Of a stretch of 34,675 bases of DNA, positions 1-29,917 are shown in pieces. The notes under the pieces are model-generated. The model had not been told where the DNA came from, ran no database searches, and saw only the letters and a program-made list of their open reading frames with translations. Position numbers and translations under genes: made by a program. Source of the stretch: Corallococcus sp. CA053C (lineage in GTDB: Bacteria > Myxococcota > Myxococcia > Myxococcales > Myxococcaceae); NCBI RefSeq assembly GCF_003611675.1, contig NZ_RAWA01000053.1, forward strand, positions 1 to 34,675, written 5' to 3'. Positions within the stretch are counted from its first letter, which is position 1. Each line of letters opens with the position of its first letter.

Positions 1-1058
1 GGCCAGGTGAGGGCGGAGGGCATGGGCTCGGAGCCGTCCGCGGACACGGGGCCCGCGGCGCGGGCGGCGGCGAGCAGGCGCAGCGCCGCGTCCTCGGCGG
101 CGTCCTCCGCGGCCAGCTCCGTCATGCGCGCGGACTTCTGCCACATCCGGCGCGCGAAGGCCGCGATGCAGAGGGCCGAAGCGGCGAGCCACAGCAGCGC
201 GGAGCTGGTGGTGAGCGGCAGCCAGCCGTACCGGGCCGCGAGCCCCTCGCGCCAGTCCTGCTCCTCCAGCAGCAGCGACGTGCGGAAGGCCTTGCCGAAG
301 GCCTGCTCGAAAGGCTCTCCCGCGCGCACGCCGTCCACCAGCAGGCCCATGGCCTGGGGGCCGTGCTTCCCGGTGAGGTAGGCCACGAAGGCGGCGCTCT
401 GCGCGTAGGCGATCTCCACGTCGGCGGGCACGTCCGGCCAGTCCTCGGACAGGTCCTCGAAGTGGAAGACGCGCTCCTGCGTCACGGCGCGGAAGAGGGC
501 GCTGTAGTGCGCGACGGAGTAGCGCTCGTCGGTGAGGTTCTGCGCCACGCCCTCCTGGAACCAGCGCGGCCACTCCTTCGCCAGCTGCCCCAGCGCCACG
601 TGCGCCAGCTCATGCCTCAGCGTCGTGGGGCCCTCCGTGTCGCTCAGGCTCAGCGCGTCCAGGAGGATGATCTGATGCGCGGGGTAGGCGAGCGCCACCG
701 CCCAGCCCGGGGGCTTGCCGCCGGGGAGCGCCAGCGCCTCGAACTCCGCGCGGCCCACGCCCAGCCGGATCTCCGTGGTGCCCGGCCAGTCGCGCCCGAG
801 CATCGCGCCGAAGCTGTCGCGCACGCCCTCAATCTGCTGGGCCAGCGCCCGGGCCGCGCCCGTCGCCTTCGCCGTGTGGACGATGACGAAGCGCTTCGTG
901 CGCAGCTCACCCGTTGCCAGCGCGGGCCGTGCGTGGGGCACCAGCGCGCTGTCGGTGACGACGGCCTCCTGGCTGTGGATTCCGCGCGGACCCTCGTCCT
1001 GCGCGAACACCGGGGGCGAGGCCAGCAGCATCATCAGGACGGCGAACAGGCGGAGCAT
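1..1058 (-). CDS. Secreted zinc metallopeptidase-like protein (HExxH, peptidase MA-like). The ATG is at 1058 and the ORF runs off the window start, so the C-terminus is missing.
   Basis: Manual reverse-complement translation from ATG 1058..1056 gives MLRLFAVLMMLLASPPVFAQ (signal peptide), then a clean protein-like sequence with RHELAHVALGQL (HExxH) and no stop before position 1. It is absent from the ORF track because no stop lies in the window. Confidence 0.55.
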   Translation of the reverse strand, partial: MLRLFAVLMMLLASPPVFAQDEGPRGIHSQEAVVTDSALVPHARPALATGELRTKRFVIVHTAKATGAARALAQQIEGVRDSFGAMLGRDWPGTTEIRLGVGRAEFEALALPGGKPPGWAVALAYPAHQIILLDALSLSDTEGPTTLRHELAHVALGQLAKEWPRWFQEGVAQNLTDERYSVAHYSALFRAVTQERVFHFEDLSEDWPDVPADVEIAYAQSAAFVAYLTGKHGPQAMGLLVDGVRAGEPFEQAFGKAFRTSLLLEEQDWREGLAARYGWLPLTTSSALLWLAASALCIAAFARRMWQKSARMTELAAEDAAEDAALRLLAAARAAGPVSADGSEPMPSALTW

Positions 1059-1066
1059 GCGTGGCC

Positions 1067-1366
1067 TCACGGTCCACCAGAGATAACAGCCTCCACCGCC
1101 GCCGCATCAACCCCCTGCACCTTCAATCGCTTACGGCGCGACGTGTCACCCGCCGTGAGGGTCACCTGCCGGCGCGGGACACCCAGCTTTTTCGCGATGA
1201 ATTCCACCAGGGCGGCATTCGCTTCGCCGTCCACGGGCGGGGCCGCGAGTTGGATCTTCAACTGGCCGTCGTGTTCCCCCACGAACTTCGTGCGGGACGC
1301 GCGCGGCTGGACGAGCACCGTCAGCTCCACCCCGTCGGGCACTGCCTTGAGCCAGGGGGCGGGCAC
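1067..1366 (-). CDS. DUF167 / YggU family protein (UPF0235)
   Basis: 99-aa ORF. The LKIQLAAPPVDGEANAALVEFIAKKLGVPRRQVTLTAGDTSRRKRLKV pattern is typical of the YggU family. It sits 3 bp downstream of divIVA on the same strand. Confidence 0.8.
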   Translation of the reverse strand: MPAPWLKAVPDGVELTVLVQPRASRTKFVGEHDGQLKIQLAAPPVDGEANAALVEFIAKKLGVPRRQVTLTAGDTSRRKRLKVQGVDAAAVEAVISGGP

Positions 1367-1369
1367 GGG

Positions 1370-1897
1370 CTAGTCGTTGGAGTTGGCCTTCTTCTGCGTC
1401 AGGAAGGCGACGTTGTCCTCGACGCGCGCGTAGTCGCGGTCCGCGAACGAGGGCGCGGCGAACGTCTCCAGCAGCTTGCGGTGGGCCTCCACCACGGAGC
1501 GCACCTGCGACTCGAACTGGGTGCGCTGGCGCTTGAGCTCGTTGATGTCTTCCACCACCTGCACCAGCCGCTGGTGCGCACCGTGGACGATCTTCTCCGC
1601 CTGGTGCTCCGCGTCCGCGATGATGATCTCCGCTTCCTTCTTCGCGGCGTCCTTCAGGTCCTCGCTGATGCGCTGCGCGGTGACCATCGTCTCCTGGAGG
1701 GTGCGCTCGCGCTCCTGGTGTTGCTCGAGCTTGTGCTGCGTGCGCTTGAGCTCCTCCTTGAGCGCGATGTTCTCCTTCACCACCTCTTCGAACTCACCGG
1801 CGATGAGCTCCAGGTACGCGCTCACTTCGGGACGCGCGTAGCCGCGCATCGCCGTCTCGAAGCGCTTCTGCCGGATGTCGAGCGGGGTGATCTTCAT
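1370..1897 (-). CDS. divIVA: DivIVA domain cell-division protein. The start is the internal ATG giving MKITPLDIRQKRF, and the ORF track start at 1963 is probably an over-extension.
   Basis: The N-terminus MKITPLDIRQKRFETAMRGYARPEV is the canonical DivIVA N-terminal domain, followed by a long coiled-coil-like region. Confidence 0.8.
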   Translation of the reverse strand: MKITPLDIRQKRFETAMRGYARPEVSAYLELIAGEFEEVVKENIALKEELKRTQHKLEQHQERERTLQETMVTAQRISEDLKDAAKKEAEIIIADAEHQAEKIVHGAHQRLVQVVEDINELKRQRTQFESQVRSVVEAHRKLLETFAAPSFADRDYARVEDNVAFLTQKKANSND

Positions 1898-1987
1898 GCG
1901 CGCCAGTCTAACCCATACACGCGCGCACTCCAGGAATCGGCCCCCCTGCCGGGGGGAGGACACGGCAAGCAGGCAGGCAGGCGTGTC

Positions 1988-2581
1988 TCAGGGCGTCGCG
2001 GTCGCGGCGCCGTCCCACTGCGACACCACGGAGCGCGCGGCGTTCTGCACCGCGTAGCCCATGCGACTGTCCGCGGCCACGTCCTGCACGGTGCGCCGCG
2101 CGGTGGGGGTGCGCTGGTAGAGCAGCCCTCCCAGGGCCTGGATCTTCAGGGCGTCCGGCAGGCGCGGGTGCCGCACGATGTTGCCCAGGATCTCTTCCGC
2201 GCGGCGGTGCTGGAAGAGCGCCACCGCGCGCAGCGCCGCCTGCTGGATGCGCGGGTTCGGATCCCAGATGAACGCGGCCAGCGGGTCCAGGGCGCGCGGG
2301 TCGCCCAGCAGCGCCAGGTCCTCGATGGCGAGCGTGCGGATCTCCTCCGGCGCCGGCTCCGAGGCCCACAGCAGGCCCCTCAGGAGCGCCACGTCCGGCG
2401 TGCTCACGTCCGCGGGCGTCGGGGAGGGCCGGGTCAGGGCGGCCTTGTCGGCGCCCGCCTTGTCTCCGGAGGCCTTGTCTCCAGAGGCTTTCTCCGGGGC
2501 CGGCTTCAGGGGAGCCCGGGCCGGAGCCTGGGCGTGCGCGGCGGCGGTCAGCAGCAGGGCGGCGGCGAGGAGCGGACGCAT
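1988..2581 (-). CDS. Secreted HEAT/PBS-lyase-like repeat protein
   Basis: Signal peptide MRPLLAAALLLTAAAHAQA, repeated A/L-rich helical units (e.g. DPNPRIQQAALRAVALF, EDLALLGDPRALDPLAAFI), and a low-complexity KASGDKASGDKAG linker. Confidence 0.55.
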   Translation of the reverse strand: MRPLLAAALLLTAAAHAQAPARAPLKPAPEKASGDKASGDKAGADKAALTRPSPTPADVSTPDVALLRGLLWASEPAPEEIRTLAIEDLALLGDPRALDPLAAFIWDPNPRIQQAALRAVALFQHRRAEEILGNIVRHPRLPDALKIQALGGLLYQRTPTARRTVQDVAADSRMGYAVQNAARSVVSQWDGAATATP

Positions 2582-2698
2582 GGCCCCGTTCTACCCGAAT
2601 CCCGGGGCCCGGACAGCGGGATGGAACACCCCCCTGGGTCGCGGGCGACATTTTCTTGACGGGATCGTCGGACGTGGGAGGTTGCTGGCGCTACAGGC

Positions 2699-3241
2699 GT
2701 GTTGCGAACGGAGAGCGAAGACATCATGGGTGCGGCGGTCGCGAGCTGGCAGACGCTGGAGAACGTCGAAGTGGAGTGCACCCACTGCGGCGTCATGATG
2801 ACCCTCCAGCCCGGGAACCGGGTGAAGTACTTCCGGTGTGGTTCATGCCACCGCTGGGTGTCCAGCACCTACAGCGAGGTGTTCCGCGCGGACTCGAAGA
2901 TGCGCACGCACCCGGTGAAGGACACCGCGGACGCGGATGCGCGCTTCGTGGAGGTGAAGGACCGGCTGGACAAGTGGCTCACCGCCGTCCAGGAGCAGTG
3001 CCCGTACCAGATGATGGGCGTGTCGCCGTTGGATCCGCCCGACGTGGTGCGCGCGCGCTTCCACGCGCTGGCCATGGAGCGGCACCCGGACCGGGGCGGC
3101 TCCGCCGAGCAGATGCGCGAACTCAACGCCGCCTACGAGCGCATCCTCAAGCACCGTCAGCGCAAGCGGATGGAGTCGCTGTCCTCCGGCACGGCCTCGC
3201 GCGCGACGCCCACGTCCGTCCTGCCCGCGCGCAGCAGGTAG
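2699..3241 (+). CDS. J-domain (DnaJ-like) protein with an N-terminal Cys4 zinc ribbon. The GTG at 2699 is called by the track, and an ATG at 2726 is an alternative start.
   Basis: CTHCG...CGSCHRW zinc-ribbon motif. The J domain contains PYQMMGVSPLDPPDVVRARFHALAMERHPDRGG with the HPD tripeptide. Confidence 0.7.
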   Translation: MLRTESEDIMGAAVASWQTLENVEVECTHCGVMMTLQPGNRVKYFRCGSCHRWVSSTYSEVFRADSKMRTHPVKDTADADARFVEVKDRLDKWLTAVQEQCPYQMMGVSPLDPPDVVRARFHALAMERHPDRGGSAEQMRELNAAYERILKHRQRKRMESLSSGTASRATPTSVLPARSR

Positions 3242-4167
3242 AGCCAGAAGAGCGCTCCCAGTGACAGGCCCAGCCCCACCTTGGCCCAGGTGGGGAAGAA
3301 GCGGCCCGGGGAGATGAAGCCCTCCACCACGCCGATGCCGGCGAGGAAGGGCGCGCAGCCCACCACCAGCTTCACCGCCTCGCGGCCGCGCACCTGGAGC
3401 GCCTGCGCCCGGGGCAGCTCGCCGGGGTCGATGAGCGCCTGGCCCACCATCAGGCCCGCGCCCCCCGCGATGACGATGATGGACAGCTCCACCGGCCCGT
3501 GCGCGGCGATGAAGTCCAGGAAGCCCACCGCCATGCCCTCGCGGAAGCACAGCGCGCCCACCGCGCCAATCAGCACGCCGTTGTTCACCAGCGTGAAGAT
3601 GGGCCCCACGCCCAGGAGGATGCCGGACGCGAACGCGAACAGCGTGACGGTGAGGTTGTTGGTCGCGATGCCGGAGGCCACCGCGTTGGGCGGCGCCACC
3701 GACAGCAGATCATCCGTCCACATGCGCCCCTGGGCCACGTAGCGCCGCACCCCCTCCGGCACCAGCAGCTCCGCGCCGCGCGGCTCCAGCGTCACCACCA
3801 GCGCGCCCAGCAGCAACCCCAACACCAGCAGGCCCGCGCTCACGCCCACGAAGCGCGCCTCGCGGCGCAGGGTGGCCGGGAAGTCGCGCCGGAAGAAGTC
3901 GCGCGTGGCGGCCCAGCGCTCGCGGGGCGGCTGGTAGATGGCGCCATACGCCTGCCCGCACAGCTGGTTGAGGAACCGGTGCGCGTCCGTGCCCGGGTAG
4001 AACGTCTGCGCCTGGGCCAGGTCCGCGGCCGCGCGGCGGTAGAGCGTGTCCAGCCGTCGCAGCTCGTCCAGGTGCAGCCGGCCCGACCTCTGGCGCGTCA
4101 GGAGCCCCTGGAGCGCGTCCCAGTCCGGCCGGCGCCGGGTGACGAAGGCGGGGAGGGGAAGGGCCAT
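3157..4167 (-). CDS. SpoIIM-like (DUF95) polytopic membrane protein
   Basis: 336 aa with multiple hydrophobic helices. The N-terminal cytoplasmic segment is typical of bacterial stage II sporulation protein M homologs. Its start lies 1 nt after the stop of the upstream RDD gene, so the pair is an operon. Its 3' end overlaps the convergent J-domain gene by 85 bp. Confidence 0.65.
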   Translation of the reverse strand: MALPLPAFVTRRRPDWDALQGLLTRQRSGRLHLDELRRLDTLYRRAAADLAQAQTFYPGTDAHRFLNQLCGQAYGAIYQPPRERWAATRDFFRRDFPATLRREARFVGVSAGLLVLGLLLGALVVTLEPRGAELLVPEGVRRYVAQGRMWTDDLLSVAPPNAVASGIATNNLTVTLFAFASGILLGVGPIFTLVNNGVLIGAVGALCFREGMAVGFLDFIAAHGPVELSIIVIAGGAGLMVGQALIDPGELPRAQALQVRGREAVKLVVGCAPFLAGIGVVEGFISPGRFFPTWAKVGLGLSLGALFWLYLLRAGRTDVGVAREAVPEDSDSIRLR

Positions 4168-4168
4168 G

Positions 4169-4939
4169 TCAGTGGCTCGCCCGGGCGCGCGCGCGCAGGA
4201 AGGCCTCCGTGGCGTCCGCGGAGGCGAGCACCCGCTCGCGCTCCGCGTCCGTCAGCGAGGCGCCCACGCGGTCCACCATCCGCGCGCCCAGCCGTCGCCG
4301 CACCTCCGGCTCCAGCCCGGACGCGCGCGACAGGAACGCCAACACCAGCTCCACGTCCTCCGCGTCCAGCGGGCGCTCAGGCGACGCGGGCGCGGGAGGC
4401 GCTTCGGAGGCGGGGGCCTGCGTGTACTTGTCCAGGTCGATGGCCTCCTCGCGCACCAGCACGGTGCCGGCGAGCAGGTCTCCCAGCCGGCGGTGCCGCC
4501 CGTCCAGCAGCATGGTGATGCAGCCGGTGGCGTAGAGCACCGGCAGGAAGTCCACCGCGCGGCACAGGTTGCGCACGGCGCTCTCGTAGAAGCCCACCGG
4601 CGCGCCGTCCTCGCGCACGACGCGGATCTTCAGCACGCGCTTGCCGGGTGTCTGTCCATGGAAGAAGACCTCCGCCAGCGTCCAGTACAGCCATTGCGTG
4701 GCGAAGATGCCCACCGCGAACAGCGACTGCGCCAGCCCCGACAGCGCCTGGAATGCGCCCAGCACGTCGGAGATGAGCAGGGTGATGACGAAGTAGAGGG
4801 CGACCCAGAAGAAGAACAGCAGGCTTGCGTCCACCAGCCACGCAAGACAGCGGTAGCCGATGCCGGCCACGGGCAGGGACAGCGCCACCCGTTCGGGCGT
4901 GGCGACGTCGACGTGAGGTGCGGGGGCGGAGGGTGTCAT
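4169..4939 (-). CDS. RDD family membrane protein. The start is taken at MTPSAPAP..., and the track ORF extends to 5128.
   Basis: Hydrophobic helices around an R..D..D-containing core (LAWLVDASLL, VVREDGAPVGFYESAVRNLCRAVDFLPVLY). The choice of start is inference. Confidence 0.65.
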   Translation of the reverse strand: MTPSAPAPHVDVATPERVALSLPVAGIGYRCLAWLVDASLLFFFWVALYFVITLLISDVLGAFQALSGLAQSLFAVGIFATQWLYWTLAEVFFHGQTPGKRVLKIRVVREDGAPVGFYESAVRNLCRAVDFLPVLYATGCITMLLDGRHRRLGDLLAGTVLVREEAIDLDKYTQAPASEAPPAPASPERPLDAEDVELVLAFLSRASGLEPEVRRRLGARMVDRVGASLTDAERERVLASADATEAFLRARARASH

Positions 4940-5417
4940 GCGTGTCGGACGCACAGCATACGCCCTTGGCGTCCAGGGCGCGCCCTCCGTGTTTTGCGTG
5001 CCACCAACACCCGGGAGCCAAAACAGCGCACGAAACATCGAATGGTGGACGCAAATGCGTGTCCCTGGCTGGACAGCGATCCTGGCCTGACGGACGAGGG
5101 CCTGGATTTCGATACACTTCATGCGCAATTGACAGTCCCGACAAAGCCGGTTCGCACGGAGCGGCTGAGGGTGTTAGGGTCTCGGGTGGTGGTTGGCATT
5201 GCCCGAGCGAAAAAGGAGGAACGGCCCGAAGGGGCCGGTTCGGCAGTCGCAAGCGCAGTCCGCAGTGCAGCACGGACAAGACCCCCGGATGGAGTTGAAG
5301 CGCGGTTCTCGCACGCCCATCACAGGCGGAAGTTCCGCCGCGGTTCCACCGACTCCGGGGCAGGTTGCAGTCGACAGGTTGTAAAGCAATTCGCCACGAC
5401 GGCTGGGGGGCCATCGC

Positions 5418-6104
5418 ATGGCAGCGAATCAATCCGCAGTGCGTATTTCGATTCTCGAAGGACCTTGGGCGGCCTGGCAGGGCCTCTCCGACGGACTTCG
5501 GGGTGAGGGTCATTCCACTTCGGTGACGCGCGACGTGCGCGGCTTCCTGGATGGGCTTGGAACGGATCCGCCGCAGGTGGCCATTCTGGATGTGGAGAGT
5601 GATGGCGAAGCCGCCATTGGCTGCTCCGTGACGGAAGGGCTCAACCTGCTGCGCGAGGCCCGCAAGCGCAGACTGGAAGTCCGCATGTTGCTCCTGTCCG
5701 CCGTGAGCACGCCGGAGGTCATCTCCCAGTGCTTCGACGAGGGCGCCTCCGGCTACCTCTTCCGCGCGGGGCTGGGCGTCAATGCCGTCTCTTCCGCGGT
5801 CCAGTCACTGGTGAGGGGCGAGCGCCTCTTCCCGGTGCAACTGCTGCGCAATGACTTCGAACATCCGCCGGTGACGTCACCCACGGCGAGCGTGCTGCTG
5901 CTGCTCACGCAGCGGGAGCGCGAGGTGCTGGCGTACGTGGCGGGAGGCGCGGACAACCTGAAGATCGCCGCGCACCTTCAAATCGCCGAGCGCACGGTGA
6001 AGTCACACGTCACGCAGCTCTACCGCAAGCTTGGAGCGGAGAACCGCACCCAGCTTGCCCTGCGCGCCTGCCATCTGGGCGTCAGGCCTCCGCCGGACCT
6101 CTAG
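5418..6104 (+). CDS. LuxR/FixJ-family response regulator (atypical receiver domain plus C-terminal LuxR HTH)
   Basis: The C-terminus LTQREREVLAYVAGGADNLKIAAHLQIAERTVKSHVTQLYRKLGAENRTQLA is a textbook LuxR-type HTH. The N-terminal ~120 aa is receiver-like (VAILDVESDGEA). Confidence 0.8.
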   Translation: MAANQSAVRISILEGPWAAWQGLSDGLRGEGHSTSVTRDVRGFLDGLGTDPPQVAILDVESDGEAAIGCSVTEGLNLLREARKRRLEVRMLLLSAVSTPEVISQCFDEGASGYLFRAGLGVNAVSSAVQSLVRGERLFPVQLLRNDFEHPPVTSPTASVLLLLTQREREVLAYVAGGADNLKIAAHLQIAERTVKSHVTQLYRKLGAENRTQLALRACHLGVRPPPDL

Positions 6105-6119
6105 TCGGGGACCGGCCCA

Positions 6120-6142
6120 CCCTCCCCGCGAACCGGGGAGGG
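6120..6142. terminator. GC-rich hairpin between convergent luxR-type and mbtH-like genes, probably a bidirectional terminator
   Basis: CCCTCCCCG (6120-6128), a 5-nt loop, then CGGGGAGGG (6134-6142), giving a perfect 9-bp stem. It lies 16 bp after the stop at 6104 and 29 bp before the stop of the minus-strand gene at 6171. Confidence 0.4.
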
Positions 6143-6170
6143 AGTCGCGGCAGTCGGAAACGGCGCGGCC

Positions 6171-6392
6171 CTAGTTCTTGCGGGCCGCCTCTTCCATCTT
6201 CTTGCGGAGGCTCAGGGGACGCATGTCCGTCCAGACCTCCTTGATGTACTCCAGGCACTCGGCCTTCAGGCCCTGCTTGCCGGCGTCCTTCCAGCCCAGC
6301 GCGTTCTCGCGGTCGGCGGGCCAGATGGAGTACTGCTCTTCGTGGTTCACGACGACCTTGTAGATGGTCGTGTCTTCGCGCTCGTCGCTCAT
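6171..6392 (-). CDS. MbtH-like protein
   Basis: 73 aa, [41 protein letters not shown], with the conserved MbtH Trp/Pro signature (N.E.QYS.WP....P.GW). Confidence 0.85.
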
Positions 6393-6581
6393 GGGGGGTG
6401 GCTCCTACGACACCAGGGAGCCCCTTTCGTCGCACACCCGGGGAAAAGCGGTCAAGGTAGGCGAACGGGAAGGCTCGGGAGCCGTCCTGTCAGGGCGGAT
6501 CCGCGCCCGGCCGCCCGGTAGGGCTCCACCCGTGACCCGCGTCCGTGACACAGGGGATGCGGGCCACGGATACTCCCGCCC

Positions 6582-7589
6582 ATGCGCTTCTTGAAGAACG
6601 GCATCGCGGGCATCCTCCTCCTCGTGGGAGGCGCCTGGGCCGCGCTGGCCCTGGCCCTCACGGGCTCAGGCCCGGAAGGTCCCCACCTGGGGAGGGCCCT
6701 CTTCGCCGTGGGGCTCCTGGGCGCGGCGGTGGCCGCGTGGCGGTGGCGCTCCCGGCGCTGGAGCGTGGCGGTGGTGCTGGTGGGGTGCGCGGCCGTGTAC
6801 GGCTGGGTGCGCACGGTGCAGCCCTCCAACACCCGGGACTGGGCGCCGGACCTGACGCGGGCGCCGTGGGCGGAGGTCGCCGGCTCGAAGGTGACGCTCC
6901 ACGAGGTGCGCGACTTCCGCTACCGCAGCACCACGGACTGGGATGAGGCCTGGTACACGGCCACCTACGACACGGACGCGCTCACGGGCGCGTCGTTCAT
7001 CGTGGAGCCCTTCTCCGGGTTCTACGGCGCGGCGCACACGATGGTGTCCTTCAGCTTCCAGGACGGCCGCCACGTGGTGTTCTCCGTGGAGGTGCGGCGC
7101 GAGAAGGGCGAGACGTTCTCCGCGGTGGGCGGCCTGTTCCGCCGCTTCGAGCTGGCGTACGTCGTGGGCGACGAGCGCGACCTCGTGCAGCTGCGCTCCA
7201 ACTTCCGCCACGACGCCGTGTACCTGTACCCCGTGAAGGCGTCGAAGGAGCGCGTCACCGCGTTCTTCCTGGACATGGTGCAGCGGATGAACGGGCTGCA
7301 CGCGGCGCCGGAGTTCTACGACACGCTCACCAGCAACTGCACCACCAACCTGGTGCGCCACTTCGAGAAGGTGGCCACGAAGGACGTGCCCTATGATCAC
7401 CGCACGCTGATGCCCGCGTTCGCGGACGCGCTCGCGTACGAGCTGGGCATCATCGACACGGACGCCCCGCTGGAGCAGGTCCGCGCGCGCTACCACATCA
7501 ACGCGCGCGCGCTGGCGGCGCAGGGGCAGGACGACTTCTCCCAGCGCATCCGCGCCCCCGAGCCCACCGCCACCGCCCCGGCGCCGTGA
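6582..7589 (+). CDS. DUF4105 domain-containing membrane-anchored protein
   Basis: N-terminal TM/signal segment followed by a conserved region (VTLHEVRDFRYRSTTDWDEAWYT...FIVEPFSGFYGAAHTMVSF) typical of DUF4105. Confidence 0.65.
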   Translation: MRFLKNGIAGILLLVGGAWAALALALTGSGPEGPHLGRALFAVGLLGAAVAAWRWRSRRWSVAVVLVGCAAVYGWVRTVQPSNTRDWAPDLTRAPWAEVAGSKVTLHEVRDFRYRSTTDWDEAWYTATYDTDALTGASFIVEPFSGFYGAAHTMVSFSFQDGRHVVFSVEVRREKGETFSAVGGLFRRFELAYVVGDERDLVQLRSNFRHDAVYLYPVKASKERVTAFFLDMVQRMNGLHAAPEFYDTLTSNCTTNLVRHFEKVATKDVPYDHRTLMPAFADALAYELGIIDTDAPLEQVRARYHINARALAAQGQDDFSQRIRAPEPTATAPAP

Positions 7590-7590
7590 C

Positions 7591-8328
7591 TCAGGTGCCC
7601 GTCTTCTTCAGGTCGCCCTGGAGGTGTCGCACGTAGTGCTCCTCCAGCGCGGTGAAGTAGCCGCGCTCCTCCCACAGCTCCTGGAGGAGCCGGTCGGTGA
7701 GGGACCGCACCTCCGCGCTCTCGCCCTCGCGGTCGGGCACGCGCGGGCCGCGCTTCGGGTCGAGCAGGGCGCGGGTGGCCTCCGCCATCAGCAGCCGGCT
7801 GCTCCGGAAGATGCGGCGCAGGGCCTGGTTGATGGGGCGGGCGTCCAGCTCCTTGCAGGCGGCCACGATGGCGTCCTGCACCTTCCGGGGCGCGTCACCC
7901 TGGAGGGACGCGGCGTCCAGGTCGCCGCGCTCCAGGGCGTGGTGCAGCAGGTAGCCGTGGTGCAGCGTCAACGACGTCAGGTCCACGCAGTCCTTCACCC
8001 AGAGGACGAAGAAGACCTTGCGGAACACCTTGCGCACCGGGAAGAGGGCCACGGCCTTCAGGTACGAAACGAGCCGCCCGCCCAGGCTGCGCGCCTCGTT
8101 GGAGCCGGCCAGCAGCGCCACGGCCTTGTCCGGGGCCTTGATGCCCCGCTCCTGGAGCTGGTCGCGCACGGCCTGCTCGCGCACCTGCCGCAGGGCGTAG
8201 TCGTCCAGGAAGGGCACGGGGATGAGCGGGGTGAGCCCGGCCGCCACGGCGTGGAAGGCCACGCGTTTGAGCGGGGGCGGCACGGCATTCGACGGACGGG
8301 GCGAGGGGTCGGCCATGGCGTGTTTCAT
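7591..8328 (-). CDS. Hypothetical protein. The real ~246-aa coding part is the C-terminal third of the 468-aa track ORF.
   Basis: Protein-like composition from MKHAMADPSPRP (ATG at 8328) onward. Upstream of that the ORF is Arg/Pro-rich antisense-type translation. The start is assigned by eye. Confidence 0.45.
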   Translation of the reverse strand: MKHAMADPSPRPSNAVPPPLKRVAFHAVAAGLTPLIPVPFLDDYALRQVREQAVRDQLQERGIKAPDKAVALLAGSNEARSLGGRLVSYLKAVALFPVRKVFRKVFFVLWVKDCVDLTSLTLHHGYLLHHALERGDLDAASLQGDAPRKVQDAIVAACKELDARPINQALRRIFRSSRLLMAEATRALLDPKRGPRVPDREGESAEVRSLTDRLLQELWEERGYFTALEEHYVRHLQGDLKKTGT

Positions 8329-8421
8329 AACCGCTTCCGTCCCGGCCGCCTTCCGTCGGTAGAGTGCCGGCAGGTTTTTTGTCGGCGGGAGTGTCCTGAA
8401 CTCCTCCGAGAGGTGGATTGG

Positions 8422-9003
8422 ATGAAGGCGAAGCTGGAACTCCCCATCGTGCCGTTCGCGTCGGAGAAGGCGTGGGAGAAGTGGCTGGAGAAGCACCACG
8501 CGGACTCGCCGGGTGTCTGGATGAAGCTCGCGAAGCGGGAGTCGGGCATCCCGTCGGTGACGTATGCGCAGGCGCTGGACGTGGCGCTCTGCTACGGGTG
8601 GATCGACGGGCAGAAGGACGCGCTCGACGCGGAGTACTGGCTCCAGCGCTTCACGCCCCGGGGCGCCCGCAGCCGGTGGTCGAAGATCAACTGCGGCAAG
8701 GTGGAGGCCCTCCTCGCCGCGGGGCGCATGAAGCCCGCGGGCCTGCGCGAGGTGGAGGCGGCCCGGGCCGACGGACGGTGGGAGACGGCGTACGCGGGGC
8801 CGAAGACCATCACCGTCCCGGAGGACCTGCTGCTCGCGCTGGACGCGAACCCGAAGGCGAAGGCGTTCTTCGCCACGCTCAAGAGCGCCAACCGGTACGC
8901 CATCCTCTACCGGCTCCACGAAGCGAAGAAGCCGGAGACGCGCGCGCGGCGGTTGGACATGTTCGTCGCCATGCTCGAGGCCGGCGAGACGCTCCACGGC
9001 TAG
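8422..9003 (+). CDS. YdeI/OmpD-associated family protein (PF13376-like)
   Basis: MKAKLELPIVPFASEKAWEKWLEKHHADSPGVWMKLAKRESG...ALDVALCYGWIDGQKDA...SRWSKINCGKVEALLAAGRMKPAGL...ADGRWETAY fits the family pattern. The ATG is at 8422, in frame with track ORF 7624..9003. Confidence 0.6.
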   Translation: MKAKLELPIVPFASEKAWEKWLEKHHADSPGVWMKLAKRESGIPSVTYAQALDVALCYGWIDGQKDALDAEYWLQRFTPRGARSRWSKINCGKVEALLAAGRMKPAGLREVEAARADGRWETAYAGPKTITVPEDLLLALDANPKAKAFFATLKSANRYAILYRLHEAKKPETRARRLDMFVAMLEAGETLHG

Positions 9004-9021
9004 GGACGGCGGGCAGGCGGG

Positions 9022-9903
9022 CTACTTGGGCTCGCCCATGACTTCCAGCGTGTGCTTGAGCCGCTCCAGGCCCAGGCGCACCAGGGCGCCGCGCAGGTCG
9101 GGCTGGCCCAGGAACGCCTTCTTGAACACGTCGCGCTCCAGCTTGAGCAGCGTGCACGGCGTCACGGTGCGCACGGTGGCGGTGGCGAGGCGGCTGCGCA
9201 GCAGGGAGATCTCCCCGAACAGGGCGCCTTCCTCCAGCACGGGGAAGGACGTCTGGCGACCGTCGCTGTGCGTGTGGAAGACCTCGCACTGGCCGCGCAG
9301 CAGGACGTAGAGCGCGTCACCCGGCTGTCCCCGGGTGAGGAGCGTTTCCCCCGCGGGGACGGTGCACGGGATGAAGGCGTCCCCCAGCTCGTGCTGCACT
9401 TCCGGGGGCAGCGCGGCGATGAGCGGGTTGCTGCGCAGCGTGTCCGCGAGCAGGCGCTCCTTCGCGGCCAGCTGCATCTGCTCCCCCTTCACGCCGTAGT
9501 CCTTGCCCAGCTCCCGGACGCCGGCCTGCGTGAGCTCCAGCAGCACCACGTCCTCCACCGTCACCACCGTGGCGGTGCGCTTCGTGCCGGTGAGCAGCGC
9601 CAGCTCCCCGAAGAACTCACCGGAGCCCAGGCGGCCCACCTCCAGGTTCGCGGCGCCGTCGTTGCCGCGCAGCACCGCGACCCGACCCTCCAGCACGACG
9701 AACATCGAGTTGCCGGGGTCGCCTTCGCGCACCACCACCTGGCCCGCCTGGAGGTAGCGCGTGCAGACGGGAGGGGCCGGGGCCACCTCCGCTTCCGTTA
9801 CGTTCGCCGGGGCGGAAGGTGTCGCGGACGCCGGTCCGGCGGAGACCTCCGGGGCGGACGGGTGGGCGGACAGCAGGGCCTGCAGGCGCGCGAACAGGGA
9901 CAT
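9022..9903 (-). CDS. Protein with two tandem cyclic-nucleotide-binding (CAP-effector) domains and no DNA-binding domain
   Basis: Two copies of the cNMP-binding signature (GEFFGELALLTGTKRTATVVTVEDVVLLEL and GALFGEISLLRSRLATATVRTVTPCTLLKL). There is no HTH after the second domain. Confidence 0.8.
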   Translation of the reverse strand: MSLFARLQALLSAHPSAPEVSAGPASATPSAPANVTEAEVAPAPPVCTRYLQAGQVVVREGDPGNSMFVVLEGRVAVLRGNDGAANLEVGRLGSGEFFGELALLTGTKRTATVVTVEDVVLLELTQAGVRELGKDYGVKGEQMQLAAKERLLADTLRSNPLIAALPPEVQHELGDAFIPCTVPAGETLLTRGQPGDALYVLLRGQCEVFHTHSDGRQTSFPVLEEGALFGEISLLRSRLATATVRTVTPCTLLKLERDVFKKAFLGQPDLRGALVRLGLERLKHTLEVMGEPK

Positions 9904-9938
9904 GGGGCCCGGACGCTATCAGGGGGCTGGCCGGTGAC

Positions 9939-9954
9939 TGTGAAATGCTTCACA
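9939..9954. promoter_or_regulatory. Perfect CRP/FNR-type palindrome TGTGA-N6-TCACA in a divergent intergenic region
   Basis: tgtgaaatgcttcaca at 9939-9954, flanked by c/g to give an 18-bp CTGTGAA-N4-TTCACAG inverted repeat. It lies ~36-51 bp upstream of the cNMP-binding gene start (9903, minus strand) and ~130 bp upstream of the hydrolase gene (10082). Confidence 0.45.
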
Positions 9955-10081
9955 GGCATCGGGAGATCCTCAGGAACGCCTTCCGACCAAGCAGGCGGAC
10001 TAAGGGTAAATCCTTACGGCGTCAGTGTTTGGCGGACAGGTCCGTGGAAGATGCAAGGCATTGGCTTGAGCACAGGGAGGC

Positions 10082-10798
10082 GTGATGCCGCGAGAACAGA
10101 GGGTGCTGCTCGGTGAGGCTCCGGCGTTGGTGGTGGGGGACGGGTCGACCCTGGCCCCGGGACCCAGGGGCACTTTCGTGCTCATTCATGGACTTGGGGG
10201 GTCGAAGGAGGTCCAGCTGCCCGAGGCGCAGCTGTTGGCCCGGCATGGCTACCTCGCGGTGATTCTTGACGCGATGGGGCACGGCGAGCGGCGGTATCCC
10301 GACTTCGAGCGGCGCTTCAGCCCCGACCATCGGGATCAGTCCTTCCGCGAAGTCGTCTCGCGCTCCGCGCAGGAGCTGCCTCGCGTCCTCGGAGCCCTGG
10401 CGGAGCGGGGCTGGTCGCGGCCGGGAGCGGTGGGCGTGTGCGGCATCTCGATGGGCGGTGCGATCCTCTTCGAGGGCCTGGGTCCGGAGCTGGCGCTCGA
10501 CGCGGCCGTGACCGTCATCGCCCCGCCGCCGCGAGGGCCTCAAGGCCACGCACGGCTGGAGCGCTTCTTCCCGACGCCCCTGCTGATGCAGGCGGCGGGT
10601 GCGGACTCCCTGGTCCCGGCACAGGACGCGCGCGACTTCCACCACGCGCTCCTGCCGCGTTACGCGAGCGCACCCGAACGCCTCCGCTACTTCGAGCATC
10701 CCGGCGAAGAGCACATGTTCACCGAGGCAGGCTGGGGCCGCGTCTGGGAAGAGGTGCTGGGGTGGTTCGACCGGTTCATGCCGGTCGCCGGAGGCTGA
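10082..10798 (+). CDS. Alpha/beta hydrolase, dienelactone-hydrolase-like
   Basis: FVLIHGLGGSKE, nucleophile elbow GISMGG (GxSxG), and a C-terminal His region (EEHMF). The stop TGA at 10796-10798 overlaps the next start (ATGA). Confidence 0.75.
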   Translation: MMPREQRVLLGEAPALVVGDGSTLAPGPRGTFVLIHGLGGSKEVQLPEAQLLARHGYLAVILDAMGHGERRYPDFERRFSPDHRDQSFREVVSRSAQELPRVLGALAERGWSRPGAVGVCGISMGGAILFEGLGPELALDAAVTVIAPPPRGPQGHARLERFFPTPLLMQAAGADSLVPAQDARDFHHALLPRYASAPERLRYFEHPGEEHMFTEAGWGRVWEEVLGWFDRFMPVAGG

Positions 10799-11817
10799 TG
10801 ACAGGGCTACACTTCGTGGCCATGGGTGACACGCTGGACGTTGTCGTGGACGTGGGGGACGTGGGGGACGTGGCCGCGGACGGCGTGCTGCTGAAGTACG
10901 CCCAGGGCTTTCACGGCGCGGACGGCGCGGTGATGCGCCGGTTGGCGGAGGCGGGCCTCGCGGACGAAGGACTCTCGCTGCTCCCCGGCGATCACCGCAT
11001 CATCGAGACGAAGGGGAGCCTGGGGGCTCCCTGGGTGCTGTTCCTGGGGACGGTGCGCCTGCGCCAGTTCGGCTACCACGAGATCCGCCAGTTCGCGGTC
11101 CGGGCGCTCCAGCTCCTGGAACCGCGGCAGGGCCTGCGTCACCTCGCGTGCACGGTGCACGGTCCCAACTATGGGCTCGACGAGGACGAGGCGGTGCTGG
11201 CCCTGGTGGGTGGCTTCGTGGATGCGTTCCAGCGCGGCATCGGCCCGCGCGACCTGGAGCGCATCACCGTGGTGGAGCTCAATCCCAAGCGCATGGAGCG
11301 GCTGCGCAAGGCCCTGGCGTTGGGCCTGGGGGCCACCCTGGGCGTGGAGCCGCTGCCAGGTGGGATGGGGTTCCGCGTCCGGCGCAACGCCCGGTTCGTC
11401 GCGGCGGCGCCCATGGCCTCCGCGGGCGCGAACTCGAACGAGAAGCCGCATGCCTTCGTCGCCATGCCGTTCGCGCCGGAGCTGGAGGACACCTACCACT
11501 ACGGCATCCTGGGGCCCGTGAAGGCCGTGGGCCTGCTGTGTGAGCGCGTGGATCAGGCGACCTTCGATGGCCCCATCATCCAGCGCATCCGGGACCGCAT
11601 CGACACCGCGAAGGTCGTCATCGCGGACCTGTCGCTGGCGAACCCCAACGTGTACCTGGAGGTCGGGTACGCCTGGGGCAGGGGAAAGCCCACGCTGATG
11701 CTGGTGCGGGACGTGAGGGAGCTGCGCTTCGACGTGTCCAGCTACCGCTGCCTCGTCTACCGCAGCATCCGGCACCTGGAAGAGGTGCTCACCCAGGAGC
11801 TGCAGCGGATCCTCTGA
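10798..11817 (+). CDS. Fusion protein with an N-terminal macro (ADP-ribose-binding) domain and a C-terminal nucleoside 2-deoxyribosyltransferase / DNPH1(Rcl)-like N-glycosidase-family domain
   Basis: Macro motifs: GDTLDVVVDVGDVGDVAADGVLLKYAQGFHGADGAVMRRLAEAG (compare with GDIT...VNAAN..L.GGGGVDGAIHRAAG) and LACTVHGPNYGLDEDEAVLALV (compare with AFPAISTGVYGYP). C-terminal motifs: HAFVAMPF...KVVIADLSLANPNVYLEVGYAWGRGKPTLML (compare with the Rcl/NDT VVVAEVTQPSLGVGYELGRAVALGKPIL). The ATG at 10798 is in frame with track ORF 10438..11817. Confidence 0.6.
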   Translation: MTGLHFVAMGDTLDVVVDVGDVGDVAADGVLLKYAQGFHGADGAVMRRLAEAGLADEGLSLLPGDHRIIETKGSLGAPWVLFLGTVRLRQFGYHEIRQFAVRALQLLEPRQGLRHLACTVHGPNYGLDEDEAVLALVGGFVDAFQRGIGPRDLERITVVELNPKRMERLRKALALGLGATLGVEPLPGGMGFRVRRNARFVAAAPMASAGANSNEKPHAFVAMPFAPELEDTYHYGILGPVKAVGLLCERVDQATFDGPIIQRIRDRIDTAKVVIADLSLANPNVYLEVGYAWGRGKPTLMLVRDVRELRFDVSSYRCLVYRSIRHLEEVLTQELQRIL

Positions 11818-11821
11818 CACG

Positions 11822-12916
11822 TCACCAGCCGCGCGCGGCGACCTCCCACGTCGCCACGCCCGTGTCGCCCCGCACGACATGCAGCCGCGCATGCAGGGGG
11901 ACGGAAACACAGACATGGTTGGGCACCACGCGCACGCGCTCGCCGATTCGGGGGCGCCACGTCGTGGCGGACACGTCCAGCAGCCCGTGCTCCTCCGACA
12001 GGTTCTTCACCACGACCTCCGGCCGTTCAAGCAGGACGCCATACCCCGGCGCCACGCCTTCCTCCTTCGCGAGCGCCTTGGCACCCGCGTCGATGACGAC
12101 CTGTCCGGGAACGGCGGTGCTCACCACGGTGGCGAGGACGGAGTAGGCGCACTCCGTCCAATCACAGGCGCCGATGGTGACGCTGTTGCGGTCGTTCAGG
12201 ACGTTGAGGCCCGGGCGGATCTCCGTCAGCCCTCGCACGGCATGGGATTGCCAGAGGGTGGGAGTGGAGCCGCCGCTCACGACCTCGGGAGGGAGCCCCG
12301 CGGCGCGCAGGGCCTCCACGAACGACGCCAGTGTCTGGGATTGGGTCTGCATCGCGGCAGGCAGCTCCGCCTGAGGCATCCGGAGGTGACCCGCGTAGAA
12401 CGTCACGCCGCGAAACGCCACGCCCGGCGTGGAAGCCGCCACGCGCGCCAGGGCCACGGCGTCCTCGGGCGTGCGCAGCCCGACCCGACGCATGCCCAGG
12501 TCCAGCTCCACGAGCACGTCCACGGTGCGCCCGGCGTCCCGGGCCGCGAGTGCCAGGCCCTCCAGCACTTCGCGTGAGTCCAGCGCCACGGTGAGCCGCA
12601 CGCGGGAGGGCAGGGCCATCAAGCGCGCGAGCCGGCGCGTTCCCACGGGCGGATACGCCAGCAGCACGTCGTCGGACACCCGGGCCAAGACCTCGGCCTC
12701 CAGGATGGTGGCCACCGTGACGCCCGAGGCTCCCGCCGCGACCTGGAGCGCGCCCAGTTCCACCGTCTTGTGGGTCTTCGTGTGGGGCCGCCAGCGCAGG
12801 CCATGCTCCCGCGCATAGGTCGCGACGCGCTGGAGGTTCCGCTCGACGCGGTCCAGGTCGACGATGGCGGCGGGCGTGTCGAGGGCATCCAGGGCGGGCG
12901 TGGACATGCGGCGCAT
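11822..12916 (-). CDS. PLP-dependent D-serine deaminase-like / alanine-racemase N-terminal-domain family enzyme (DSD1 / D-threonine aldolase-like)
   Basis: MRRMSTPALDALDTPAAIVDLDRVERNLQRVATYAREHGLRWRPHTKTHKT (PLP-Lys context) is typical of the family. The start is moved to the internal ATG at 12916, and the upstream part of the track ORF is Arg/Gly-rich junk. Confidence 0.7.
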   Translation of the reverse strand: MRRMSTPALDALDTPAAIVDLDRVERNLQRVATYAREHGLRWRPHTKTHKTVELGALQVAAGASGVTVATILEAEVLARVSDDVLLAYPPVGTRRLARLMALPSRVRLTVALDSREVLEGLALAARDAGRTVDVLVELDLGMRRVGLRTPEDAVALARVAASTPGVAFRGVTFYAGHLRMPQAELPAAMQTQSQTLASFVEALRAAGLPPEVVSGGSTPTLWQSHAVRGLTEIRPGLNVLNDRNSVTIGACDWTECAYSVLATVVSTAVPGQVVIDAGAKALAKEEGVAPGYGVLLERPEVVVKNLSEEHGLLDVSATTWRPRIGERVRVVPNHVCVSVPLHARLHVVRGDTGVATWEVAARGW

Positions 12917-29633: not shown

Positions 29634-29853
29634 TAACTGACGGGATGCTTCCCGCGAGCGGTACGCGTGCGAGGCGGAGTCCCGGCGCGGGGTGAGCGCG
29701 TCGCGGGTGGTGACTGGTGTCATCAAGGGCTGACTCCCGTCATCAGGGACGGGGGCCTGGTTGGCCCCGCCGCGCCTCGCGCTTCGAGGCCGGGCGGAGG
29801 TCCGCCTCAAGGAGATCAAGCACTTGGCTTCGCGCGAGCGCCTTCCGAAGGGC

Positions 29854-29869
29854 TGGCATGTCTCCTGCT
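29854..29869 (+). promoter_or_regulatory. Sigma-54-like -24/-12 element (TGGCAT-N6-TGCT) ~50 bp upstream of the SLT-domain gene
   Basis: ctggcatgtctcctgctg: GG at 29855-56 and GC at 29867-68 with the canonical 12-nt spacing. The -12 element reads cTGC rather than TTGC. Confidence 0.2.
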
Positions 29870-29917
29870 GTAGGTGTTCGTCATTCAGCACCACTCACTT
29901 CCCCCGAGGAAAACCCC

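Follow-up and report, generated by a model that had tools for sequence, protein, structure and literature searches.

Gene 2 and its upstream neighbour

The window analysed here is a 34.7-kb stretch of DNA from Corallococcus sp. CA053C, in which two genes lie side by side on the forward strand. Gene 1 (10082..10798; GC3 = 0.85, coding) encodes a DLH/esterase-like alpha/beta hydrolase with a GISMG nucleophile elbow. This assignment, already made in a first-pass annotation of the sequence, is supported by Pfam matches to Hydrolase_4 (3.7e-9), DLH (1.2e-8) and also Abhydrolase_1, and by a match to the NCBIfam PRK10566 esterase that falls under the model cutoff (8e-14). Gene 2 (10822..11817, same strand; GC3 = 0.93, 3' end at 11817) encodes a 331-aa didomain protein in which a macro-fold domain precedes a TIR/DrHyd-like domain. 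We recovered 1592 homologues, the best matches ranging from 97% identity (Corallococcus) down to 55% (other Myxococcota). The orthologue in Myxococcus xanthus is MXAN_3123, which our literature search found mentioned in no paper.

The two genes had been described as translationally coupled through an ATGA overlap. We find this overlap to be an artefact of an in-frame but non-conserved ATG (10798..10800, + strand), which is not the start codon. Two relatives that are 96–97% identical, C. sicarius (L006) and C. llansteffanensis (L007), have ACG here, and three further loci (L008, L009 and L044) lack it. Since the hydrolase stop is the TGA at 10796–10798, with a second in-frame TGA right after it, any overlap at this ATG would be of 1 nt only. 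The start equivalent to ATG 10822 is used by 42 of 44 aligned homologues and kept at all Myxococcaceae loci checked, and we therefore place the beginning of gene 2 there, 23 nt past the hydrolase stop. Residues are numbered accordingly (331 aa), except where the earlier 339-aa numbering, counted from ATG 10798, is indicated.

A conserved −10-like hexamer, TACACT (10808..10813, + strand), lies 8 nt 5' of ATG 10822 and is a putative promoter element of gene 2's own; the gene 2 mRNA is putatively leaderless or near-leaderless. The sequence TACA(G/C)T occurs 12–15 nt 5' of the gene 2 ATG in 35/84 loci, including every Corallococcus locus, with or without the hydrolase, and every Myxococcus and Pyxidicoccus locus, and Archangium has nACAGT at the same position. 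A sigma-70 consensus scan of 9850–11950 returned no promoter, so it is the conservation of the box that suggests a possible function as a −10 element.

The hydrolase and the downstream macro::NDT protein had further been proposed to act together as a coupled two-gene module. Their common strand, the 23-nt gap and the lack of a predicted terminator between them would fit this idea, and read-through transcription is for this reason possible in Corallococcus sp. CA053C; a relative fused to EAD7 also has an Abhydrolase_1 gene two genes upstream, and Hyalangium versicolor has a hydrolase of 42% identity on the opposite strand, some 1.2 kb upstream of the gene 2 homologue. However, the hydrolase is found upstream of gene 2 in only 5/85 loci, all within one Corallococcus subclade, and is not there in five other Corallococcus species or in any other genus. 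It also diverges faster than gene 2 (70–88% versus 89–96% identity), the conserved box upstream of gene 2 is present irrespective of it, and the ATG that creates the overlap is lost even at 96–97% identity. The hydrolase was thus rejected as an operon partner: it is a lineage-specific neighbour outside the gene 2 unit, the adjacency is incidental, and a jointly acting module, already largely refuted, is highly improbable.

The C-terminal domain

The two domains of the gene 2 protein are joined by a flexible linker (11401..11442, + strand; pLDDT <50 at residues 202–213 in the 339-aa numbering), which is the least conserved segment of the protein with a mean identity of 51%. It is followed by a TIR/DrHyd-clade Rossmannoid N-glycosidase-like domain (11443..11814, + strand; aa 208–331), with 80% identity within Myxococcota. 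The predicted catalytic glutamate, E280 (E288 in the 339-aa numbering; codon 11659..11661, + strand, confirmed by translation), lies within NPNVYLEVGYAWG where the helix that follows the central strand begins, in a motif of the E-[LV]-G-x-A...G-K-P type. The stretch ADLSLANPNVYLEVGYAWGRGKP had been picked out as an NDT/Rcl motif, and MilB and Rcl/DNPH1 do have their catalytic-Glu motif at the aligned position. E280 falls on the catalytic Glu of both MilB (profile E 2e-3) and Rcl (E93; hhalign E 9e-6, restricted to the Glu motif and using an Rcl sequence whose residues 59–104 agree with the PDB alignment), and it is invariant in Myxococcota.

The earlier description as a macro::NDT/DNPH1-like fusion thus holds for fold and motif, but not for Pfam scoring, as PF05014 (NDT) reaches 25.8 bits against a gathering score of 28.8 (E 1.3e-5, residues 260–309 only); the same model matches 50/147 relatives at E<=1e-3. 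The top profile match of the domain is the PADLOC CBASS 'Effector TIR' model PDLC00733 (E 5.2e-13), a partial match in which residues 257–329 cover model positions 290–362 of 388. This model matches the domain in 10/10 relatives tested, with values from 5e-13 to 1e-6 when the gene 2 protein is included. Pfam CAP12-PCTIR_TIR gave no match to the gene 2 protein. In structural comparison the domain is slightly nearer to MilB and NDT than to TIR, and a nucleotide is therefore as possible a substrate as NAD+.

A strand-1 active-site Tyr, hydrogen-bonded to the Glu, accounts for 2'-deoxy specificity (PMC11204291). Strand 1 of the gene 2 domain is KPHAFVAMPF (strand residues 218–222 in the predicted model), and the corresponding position appears to hold Phe and not the 2'-deoxy-specifying Tyr of NDT/DNPH1. 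Among relatives this position is F in 32/40 and Y in 2/40, the equivalence being drawn by strand position only since hhalign left strand 1 unaligned to Rcl. A Phe here would suggest that the substrate is of the ribo type, for instance NAD+ or a ribonucleotide. The LOG/SLOG (cytokinin riboside 5'-monophosphate phosphoribohydrolase-like) clade was rejected as a home for the domain, which has no LOG match among Pfam, NCBIfam and PADLOC profiles and does not have LOG as its closest structural relative.

The N-terminal domain

Residues 1–193 (10822..11400, + strand) form a divergent macro-fold domain, a three-layer alpha/beta/alpha structure with a mixed six- or seven-stranded sheet and a TM score of about 0.7, normalised to target, against MacroD-type macro structures. 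The first-pass annotation had singled out the blocks GADGAV and HGPNYG as macro motifs. In an hhalign alignment (P 7e-4) of 154 colinear columns, their counterparts in E. coli YmdB are GVDGAI and TGVYG; the alignment pairs GD13 with GD11, G32-A-D34 with G33-V-D35 and Y117-G118 with Y126-G127. G32, D34 and G118 are kept in 36–39 of 39 diverse relatives, where the polar residues D20, K25, D34, H113, D120 and E121 are near-invariant. Compared with MacroD-type proteins (E. coli YmdB, OiMacroD, Af1521), the domain has the same fold with GD, G-x-D and (Y/F)-G colinear; it differs in that loop 1 has one Gly in place of GGG, Ala or Gln stands where MacroD proteins have the catalytic Asn, and an invariant extra motif, H-G-x-G-(F/Y)-G-L-D-E, is present. 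Detection at the HMM level also differs: no Macro-family Pfam model matches gene 2 at E<=1, NCBIfam and PADLOC likewise gave it no Macro assignment, none of 147 relatives has a Pfam Macro match at E<=1e-3, and searching PDB sequences with the N-domain profile recovered no macro chain. The assignment as a macro domain is sound in fold and motifs but finds no counterpart in Pfam. Since the domain retains the GD that contacts adenine, G-x-D in loop 1 and G-(Y/F)-G in loop 2, it most likely binds an ADP-ribose-containing ligand, as far as sequence can indicate, although the failure of HMM searches to detect a Pfam Macro model or a PDB macro sequence means that such binding is not assured.

The best sequence-only match of the domain, and the sole PDB sequence-profile match, is to the macro-fold N-domain of M17 aminopeptidase, at a marginal E of 0.038. 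Together with an hhalign match to the PepA N-domain (P 4.5e-4, 53 columns) and one relative that matches Pfam Peptidase_M17_N, this raises the possibility of a scaffold of the leucine-aminopeptidase N-domain type, serving oligomerisation or nucleic-acid binding and not binding ADP-ribose, with small-molecule chemistry confined to the C-domain. However, the likeness to PepA is limited to the central beta-beta-alpha segment, whereas the YmdB alignment is colinear across the whole domain and pairs family-conserved residues with macro ligand loops. The near-invariant polar residues likewise point to a pocket and not to a scaffold, and we regard the scaffold explanation as improbable.

Distribution and fusion partners of the cassette

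The macro and TIR-like pair is a fixed cassette: clustering at 50% identity gives at least 740 protein clusters that have it, and it occurs in 358 GTDB species genomes. Both domains occur together in 108/150 cluster representatives, and most of the others look truncated. An N-terminal TIR_2 domain is fused in 39 of 147 relatives, with EAD7 (n=4), EAD1 (n=3) and bDLD1, a bacterial death-like domain (n=1), as further partners in this set, and CHAT is fused in rare relatives. A profile search with the full alignment was swamped by TIR columns and was uninformative on the two domains. Outside Myxococcota the distribution is patchy and crosses phyla at 40–47% identity (Chloroflexota, Acidobacteriota, Binatia, Bacteroidota and a Methanosarcina MAG).

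The catalytic Glu is kept in 46/49 relatives without an N-terminal extension versus 16/38 with one. Its loss is concentrated in the extended forms, which mostly carry TIR (Fisher p = 1.1e-7), suggesting that the C-domain does a catalytic job equivalent to that of TIR. In TIR–macro–C-domain triple fusions the macro residues are kept and the C-domain Glu is often lost.

Kaur et al. (2020, 2021; PMC7159879, PMC8195603) describe TIR, EAD1, EAD7, bDLD1 and CHAT as effector or adaptor domains in conflict systems of 'multicellular bacteria', whose listed effector domains include DRHyd, TIR and Macro; in the text of these two papers we did not find this particular pairing of macro and DrHyd. Relatives of gene 2 resemble the systems of Kaur et al. 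in carrying EAD1, EAD7, bDLD1, TIR or CHAT N-terminally, but the gene 2 protein itself has no EAD or bDLD domain (Pfam), and none of its near neighbours is a STAND, vWA-MoxR or other NTPase partner. The EAD1 and EAD7 forms show no partner on the long contigs examined, including a 259-kb contig on which an EAD7 form has no adjacent one; most of the loci of these forms that were looked up are on short contigs. The family is large and uncharacterised, and elsewhere it bears immune-type domains.

Genomic context in Myxococcota

Across the Myxococcota sampled, gene 2 is a single syntenic gene of uniform length, present in all Myxococcaceae and Archangiaceae species recovered. In Myxococcaceae it sits in a conserved backbone (SpoIIM-RDD-...-Lnb_N-...-gene 2-D-Ser-dehydratase-like-...-S9-S13 peptidases). 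No TIR, cyclase, CD-NTase, SIR2, defence or mobile-element gene lies beside it in the 34.7-kb window or at the relatives' loci examined, in agreement with the earlier remark that no TIR/SIR2/CD-NTase generator is visible in the window; the linked TIR or cyclase genes that homologous loci might have revealed are found at none of them. A tie to conflict systems is seen for the family, in its fusions to conflict domains, and not at the loci, which show no defence island, generator or mobile neighbour. The biochemical idea of the first-pass annotation stands; its picture of a module and that of a defence island do not. Of the findings that the annotation had named as contrary to its defence-like description, most are present here, namely a conserved chromosomal context and no defence-island association, whereas membership in the LOG clade is not.

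Clustering of neighbours over 84 loci revealed no gene recurrently linked to gene 2 beyond close relatives, and the protein therefore appears self-contained. Linkage to NAD or nucleotide salvage genes was likewise not seen at the loci examined. One cluster of nine loci, from a Kofleriaceae MAG and some other MAGs, consists of an ORF without annotation that lies about 2.5 kb upstream. Separately, the second gene upstream of gene 2, on the opposite strand, encodes a tandem cNMP-binding protein; this gene is directly upstream of gene 2 in the Corallococcus species without the hydrolase and is not conserved outside Corallococcus.

Comparison with known systems

In type II Thoeris the TIR/NDT-like ThsB makes a ligand that is bound by the macro domain of the TM-macro protein ThsA, so that a macro domain serves as sensor of an ADPr derivative with ligand-induced oligomerisation (Shi et al. 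2024, PMC11204291); imidazole adenine dinucleotide (IAD) is one ligand of the ThsA macro domain in that work. Thoeris uses two separate genes, whereas gene 2 has both kinds of domain in one polypeptide. ThsA has N-terminal transmembrane helices; the gene 2 protein has none and begins directly with macro strand 1. ThsB subfamily 9 typically has Tyr at strand 1, where gene 2 probably has Phe, and Thoeris is an island gene whereas gene 2 is conserved and core-like. The PADLOC ThsA models match neither the gene 2 protein nor any relative, and those for ThsB do not match the gene 2 protein but match two relatives, in both cases only at the TIR fused to the N-terminus. Canonical Thoeris membership was thus rejected, on the transmembrane helices, the PADLOC results and the lack of a separate ThsB/TIR gene in the window.

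MilB/BlsM CMP N-glycosidases and DNPH1 (Rcl)/NDT share the catalytic Glu motif, but gene 2 has a macro domain in addition. NDT and DNPH1 lack the family motifs KPHxFVAMPF, LCER and FDV..R.C..Y, and there is no nucleoside-antibiotic or salvage context around gene 2.

CBASS and Pycsar employ TIR-like NADase effectors fused to a sensor (TIR-SAVED/Cap12, TIR-STING and PycTIR). The sensor there is a SAVED, STING or cNMP-binding domain, whereas gene 2 has a macro fold in the sensor position, and these systems have an adjacent cyclase/CD-NTase gene, which gene 2 does not. Canonical CBASS membership was rejected because neither the window nor the relatives' loci hold a cyclase/CD-NTase and the protein has no SAVED, STING or cNMP sensor.

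Proposed function and alternatives

The folds, motif alignments, cassette architecture, fusion partners and genomic context observed here lead us to propose, tentatively and at somewhat under even chances, that gene 2 encodes a self-contained NAD+/ADP-ribose-centred effector-type enzyme in which a macro pocket is coupled to an N-glycosidase. Gene 2 would be expressed from its own putative promoter, independently of the hydrolase, and the C-domain, its predicted catalytic Glu intact, would cleave NAD+ or a nucleotide. Occupancy of the macro pocket by a ligand may control the C-domain, probably via oligomerisation, by analogy with ThsA, TIR-SAVED, TIR-STING and PycTIR; besides the ligand motifs, the macro domain carries a family-specific polar cluster of K25, H113, D120 and E121. 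The didomain would then serve as an effector cassette in conflict or cell-death systems centred on NAD+/ADPr, and in Myxococcaceae it would have become a fixed, vertically inherited chromosomal gene. Against this proposal, the core-gene behaviour in Myxococcota (uniform length, synteny, 80% C-domain identity, no mobile or defence neighbours) is not what arms-race immunity genes typically show, gene 2 has no nearby gene for a signal-generating partner, the MacroD catalytic Asn is not conserved and the macro domain escapes HMM detection.

If correct, our proposal would describe a widespread effector cassette, in at least 740 clusters and 358 GTDB species genomes, that is absent from the catalogues searched; its macro-like domain has no Pfam family, which is why it escapes the annotation and defence-finder pipelines in current use. 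A macro domain would act as sensor of a TIR-like NADase, extending the logic of Thoeris, CBASS and Pycsar to ADP-ribose-type ligands, and an immune-type NAD+ effector would, in a rare case, have been turned into a lineage-wide chromosomal function, syntenic and core-like across myxobacteria. MXAN_3123 makes the model testable in the genetically tractable M. xanthus.

A somewhat less probable explanation is a housekeeping two-step enzyme of NAD+/ADP-ribose/nucleotide salvage or detoxification, with no conflict or signalling role in myxobacteria. The C-domain would be a MilB/DNPH1-like nucleotide N-glycosidase, and the macro domain a MacroD/Poa1p-type hydrolase or binder of compounds such as O-acetyl-ADPr or ADPr-1''-phosphate. 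The uniform single gene in its conserved backbone beside metabolic and peptidase genes, a C-domain under strong purifying selection whose top structural matches, MilB and NDT, are metabolic enzymes, and the window free of defence or mobile genes all agree with this, as does the pairing of D34 with YmdB Asp35, which we take to be a catalytic residue. It accounts less well for the fusion of the cassette elsewhere to TIR, EAD1, EAD7, bDLD1 and CHAT, domains without a known metabolic role, for the CBASS effector TIR model as the strongest profile match, for the patchy cross-phylum spread outside Myxococcota, or for the lack of linkage to NAD/nucleotide salvage genes. Were it true, gene 2 would define a new NAD+/ADPr/nucleotide-processing enzyme.

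Two further readings are less probable again. An undescribed one-protein NAD+/ADP-ribose immune or cell-death switch, in which an ADPr-derived ligand drives macro-mediated assembly and NAD+ depletion, seems rather unlikely. Its ligand might come from the protein's own TIR-like domain or from phage or host ADP-ribosylation chemistry, and the switch might have been fixed as a Myxococcaceae core gene for, for example, kin-protective or developmental cell death.

Slightly more doubtful still is a one-protein signal circuit in which the C-domain, or a fused TIR, makes an ADPr-derived molecule from NAD+ that a macro domain, in the same protomer or in one next to it, either binds, giving a self-amplifying assembly, or hydrolyses, turning the signal off. 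No effector domain lies downstream beyond the two, CHAT in rare forms excepted, the MacroD-type catalytic residues are only partly retained, and sequence data cannot separate the prediction from that of our main model. Consistent with such a circuit, the ThsB and ThsA activities of type II Thoeris (PMC11204291) would here be combined in one chain, no separate generator gene is linked across the 84 loci, and the TIR-bearing triple fusions retain the macro residues, with the C-domain Glu often gone.

Gene structure and the start of gene 2

The interval 10082-11817 holds two coding genes on the same strand, with GC3 values of 0.85 (10082..10798) and 0.93 (gene 2), the third-position GC bias typical for this genome (~70% GC). 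The nearest genomes to the window are those of Corallococcus sicarius and C. llansteffanensis (96-97% protein identity). Gene 1 (10082..10798, + strand) encodes a small alpha/beta hydrolase (Pfam Hydrolase_4 3.7e-9, DLH 1.2e-8 and Abhydrolase_1 5e-6; NCBIfam PRK10566 esterase 8e-14, under the model cutoff) with a GISMG nucleophile elbow visible on direct reading of the sequence. Its TGA stop (10796-10798) is followed by a second in-frame TGA. The first-pass annotation had proposed translational coupling of the two genes through an ATGA overlap. However, ATG 10798 would overlap the functional stop by one base only (TGATG), and its position is ACG in C. sicarius (L006) and C. llansteffanensis (L007) and lies in unrelated sequence at the three remaining hydrolase-bearing loci. 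Since this ATG is not conserved and the Met equivalent to ATG 10822 is the N-terminus in 42 of 44 aligned homologues (pattern M-[GS]-x-x-L-D-V), we assign gene 2 to 10822..11817 (+ strand, 331 aa), starting 23 nt 3' of the hydrolase stop, and abandon the coupling.

A TACA(G/C)T hexamer (10808-10813, + strand), conserved 12-15 nt 5' of the gene 2 ATG, is present at all Corallococcus, Myxococcus and Pyxidicoccus loci, with or without the hydrolase (at equivalent positions in L001-L044 and L068), and Archangium has nACAGT at the equivalent position. Its position and conservation upstream of the start codon suggest a putative −10 element giving a leaderless or near-leaderless transcript; a sigma-70 consensus scan of 9850-11950 reported no promoter.

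Domain identities

In an AF2 model of the gene 2 protein (45-sequence alignment, mean pLDDT 83), a disordered linker separates two globular domains. For the N-terminal, macro-like domain, Pfam Macro gave no match in the window protein or in 147 relatives, and a family profile found no macro chain in the PDB. Profile-sequence comparison with the genuine macro protein YmdB of E. coli was colinear over 154 columns (P 7e-4), pairing GD13 with GD11, G32-A-D34 with G33-V-D35 and Y117-G118 with Y126-G127; these are the blocks from which a macro domain had been called at first pass, and the call is borne out at the level of fold and motifs. The PepA N-domain aligned over a central 53-column segment only. 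In 39 diverse relatives, D20, K25, G32, D34, Y85, T111, H113, G114, G118, L119, D120, E121 and R157 vary little or not at all, which indicates a conserved pocket.

The C-terminal domain was originally described as NDT/DNPH1-like. That description survives in part: E280 (codon 11659-11661), the predicted catalytic residue, falls on the catalytic Glu in alignments with MilB and Rcl, but the Pfam Nuc_deoxyrib_tr score falls below the cutoff (25.8 against 28.8 bits). The PADLOC CBASS 'Effector TIR' model PDLC00733 matches the domain at 5e-13, and did so in 10/10 relatives tested. Judging from strand position, Phe would occupy the place of the 2'-deoxy-specifying Tyr of NDT/DNPH1, where MilB also has Phe or Ala. 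NADase-type TIRs carry Phe or Ala at that strand position (PMC11204291).

A family with recurrent N-terminal fusions

Searching with the macro-like domain alone returned at least 740 clusters at 50% identity, 527 of them with E<=1e-10, and the C-domain follows it in 108 of 150 representatives, the remainder being mostly truncated-looking. The cassette is not unique to the window. No description of it was found in the literature searched; there is no Pfam or NCBIfam family for the macro-like domain, and the PADLOC model spans the C-domain only. It is best seen as a variation on a kind already known, in which a sensor or processing domain is joined to a TIR-like N-glycosidase.

Further N-terminal domains occur among 147 representatives (TIR_2 in 39, EAD7 in 4, EAD1 in 3, bDLD1 and HTH in 1 each), and a separate scan found CHAT and Hsp70 at the N-termini of two more. 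According to Kaur et al. (PMC7159879, PMC8195603), EADs and bacterial death-like domains serve multicellular bacteria as adaptors, linking effectors such as TIR, DRHyd and caspase to conflict systems built on NTPases. The catalytic Glu is kept in 46/49 relatives without an N-terminal extension and in 16/38 with one, mostly TIR (Fisher p = 1.1e-7); it is replaced in 22 of the extended forms, mostly by Gln (e.g. proteins P0137, P0139, P0151, P0155, P0160, P0165, P0166 and P0174), and in 3 of the unfused ones. The macro-domain residues stay conserved in the extended relatives. This preferential loss of the Glu suggests that the C-domain and a fused TIR are catalytically interchangeable.

Genomic context and possible function

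The GTDB species genomes hold 358 loci with a relative of gene 2. Those outside Myxococcota (40-47% identity) are scattered among Chloroflexota, Acidobacteriota, Binatia, Bacteroidota, Gemmatimonadota, Gallionellales and a Methanosarcina MAG; within Myxococcota mean identity is 80% for the C-domain and 57% for the macro domain. The gene also turns up under the record titles 'Comamonas sp. KCTC 72670' and 'uncultured Enterobacterales' (L024, BNCN01000010.1; L055/L056/L063). At L024 the Myxococcus-type synteny is complete, with 67-77% identity. Contamination or mislabelling of these assemblies is indicated.

A module of hydrolase plus gene 2 was rejected, given the non-conserved ATG and the hydrolase lying upstream in just 5 of 85 loci encoding relatives (tblastn with the window's proteins). 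These five are C. sicarius, C. llansteffanensis, C. terminator CA054A, C. praedator and one Myxococcaceae MAG, with 70-88% identity for the hydrolase versus 89-96% for gene 2. None of the Myxococcus, Pyxidicoccus, Archangium, Hyalangium, Vitiosangium, Kofleriaceae or non-myxobacterial loci in this set has it at the upstream position. In the window a tandem cNMP-binding-domain gene (9022-9903, − strand; Pfam cNMP_binding 1.5e-46, two copies) diverges from the hydrolase; in C. exercitus, C. coralloides, C. aberystwythensis, C. interemptor and Corallococcus sp. RDP092CA it lies directly upstream of gene 2, and among the loci compared it was not seen beside gene 2 outside Corallococcus. An EAD7-fused relative has an Abhydrolase_1 gene two genes ahead of it (L091/L092, 4047-4934), and in Hyalangium versicolor a 42%-identical homologue of the window's hydrolase sits on the opposite strand, ~1.2 kb 5' of the gene 2 orthologue (L035, 4085-4780, − strand). 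These, the sole hint of a hydrolase link, are probably coincidence.

The gene 2 protein appears self-contained, and resembles ThsA, TIR-SAVED, TIR-STING and PycTIR in that a domain with a ligand pocket is paired with a catalytic domain of the TIR/DrHyd clade. Macro domains in type II Thoeris are established ADPr-derivative sensors that oligomerise upon ligand binding (PMC11204291). On these grounds we tentatively favour, at somewhat below even confidence, an effector-type protein in which the macro-like domain would gate an NAD+/ribonucleotide N-glycosidase. The main rival, a housekeeping two-step NAD+/ADPr/nucleotide enzyme, seems only somewhat less likely; in its favour, the C-domain structural match is slightly closer to MilB and NDT, and gene 2 behaves as a core-like, syntenic gene in myxobacteria. 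The Myxococcaceae backbone runs SpoIIM, RDD, GerE-type regulator, MbtH, Lnb_N, ..., gene 2, a convergent Ala_racemase_N/D-ser_dehydrat gene, and S9 and S13 peptidases. The stops of gene 2 (TGA, 11815-11817) and the convergent D-Ser-dehydratase-like gene (11822-11824, − strand) are only 4 nt apart, leaving no space for a terminator, an arrangement kept in Corallococcus sp. H22C (4 nt) and M. xanthus (10 nt). Neighbours are unrelated in Archangium, a Myxococcales MAG and a Kofleriaceae MAG, and on contigs of 72-392 kb the TIR-fused and EAD7-fused forms likewise stand alone amid metabolic genes.

The Pfam map of the entire window has no TIR, SIR2, CD-NTase, restriction-modification, transposase or integrase genes, in agreement with the initial remark that no signal generator was visible, and clustering of all neighbouring ORFs at 84 loci revealed no recurrent linkage beyond close relatives.

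About 9 kb downstream of gene 2 lies a gene for a bacterial homologue of Major Vault Protein (771 aa; 20800-23115, + strand; Pfam MVP_shoulder 4.8e-45, Vault repeats); a 2026 preprint describes a TIR-like NADase within the vaults of eukaryotes, where the MVP shoulder binds ADP-ribose. Further on, a LysM protein with a T6SS_VgrG3-like C-terminal domain (24347-25984, + strand; 4.8e-53) and, downstream of it, an SLT transglycosylase (29717-30709) represent cell-wall-degrading functions typical of predatory myxobacteria.
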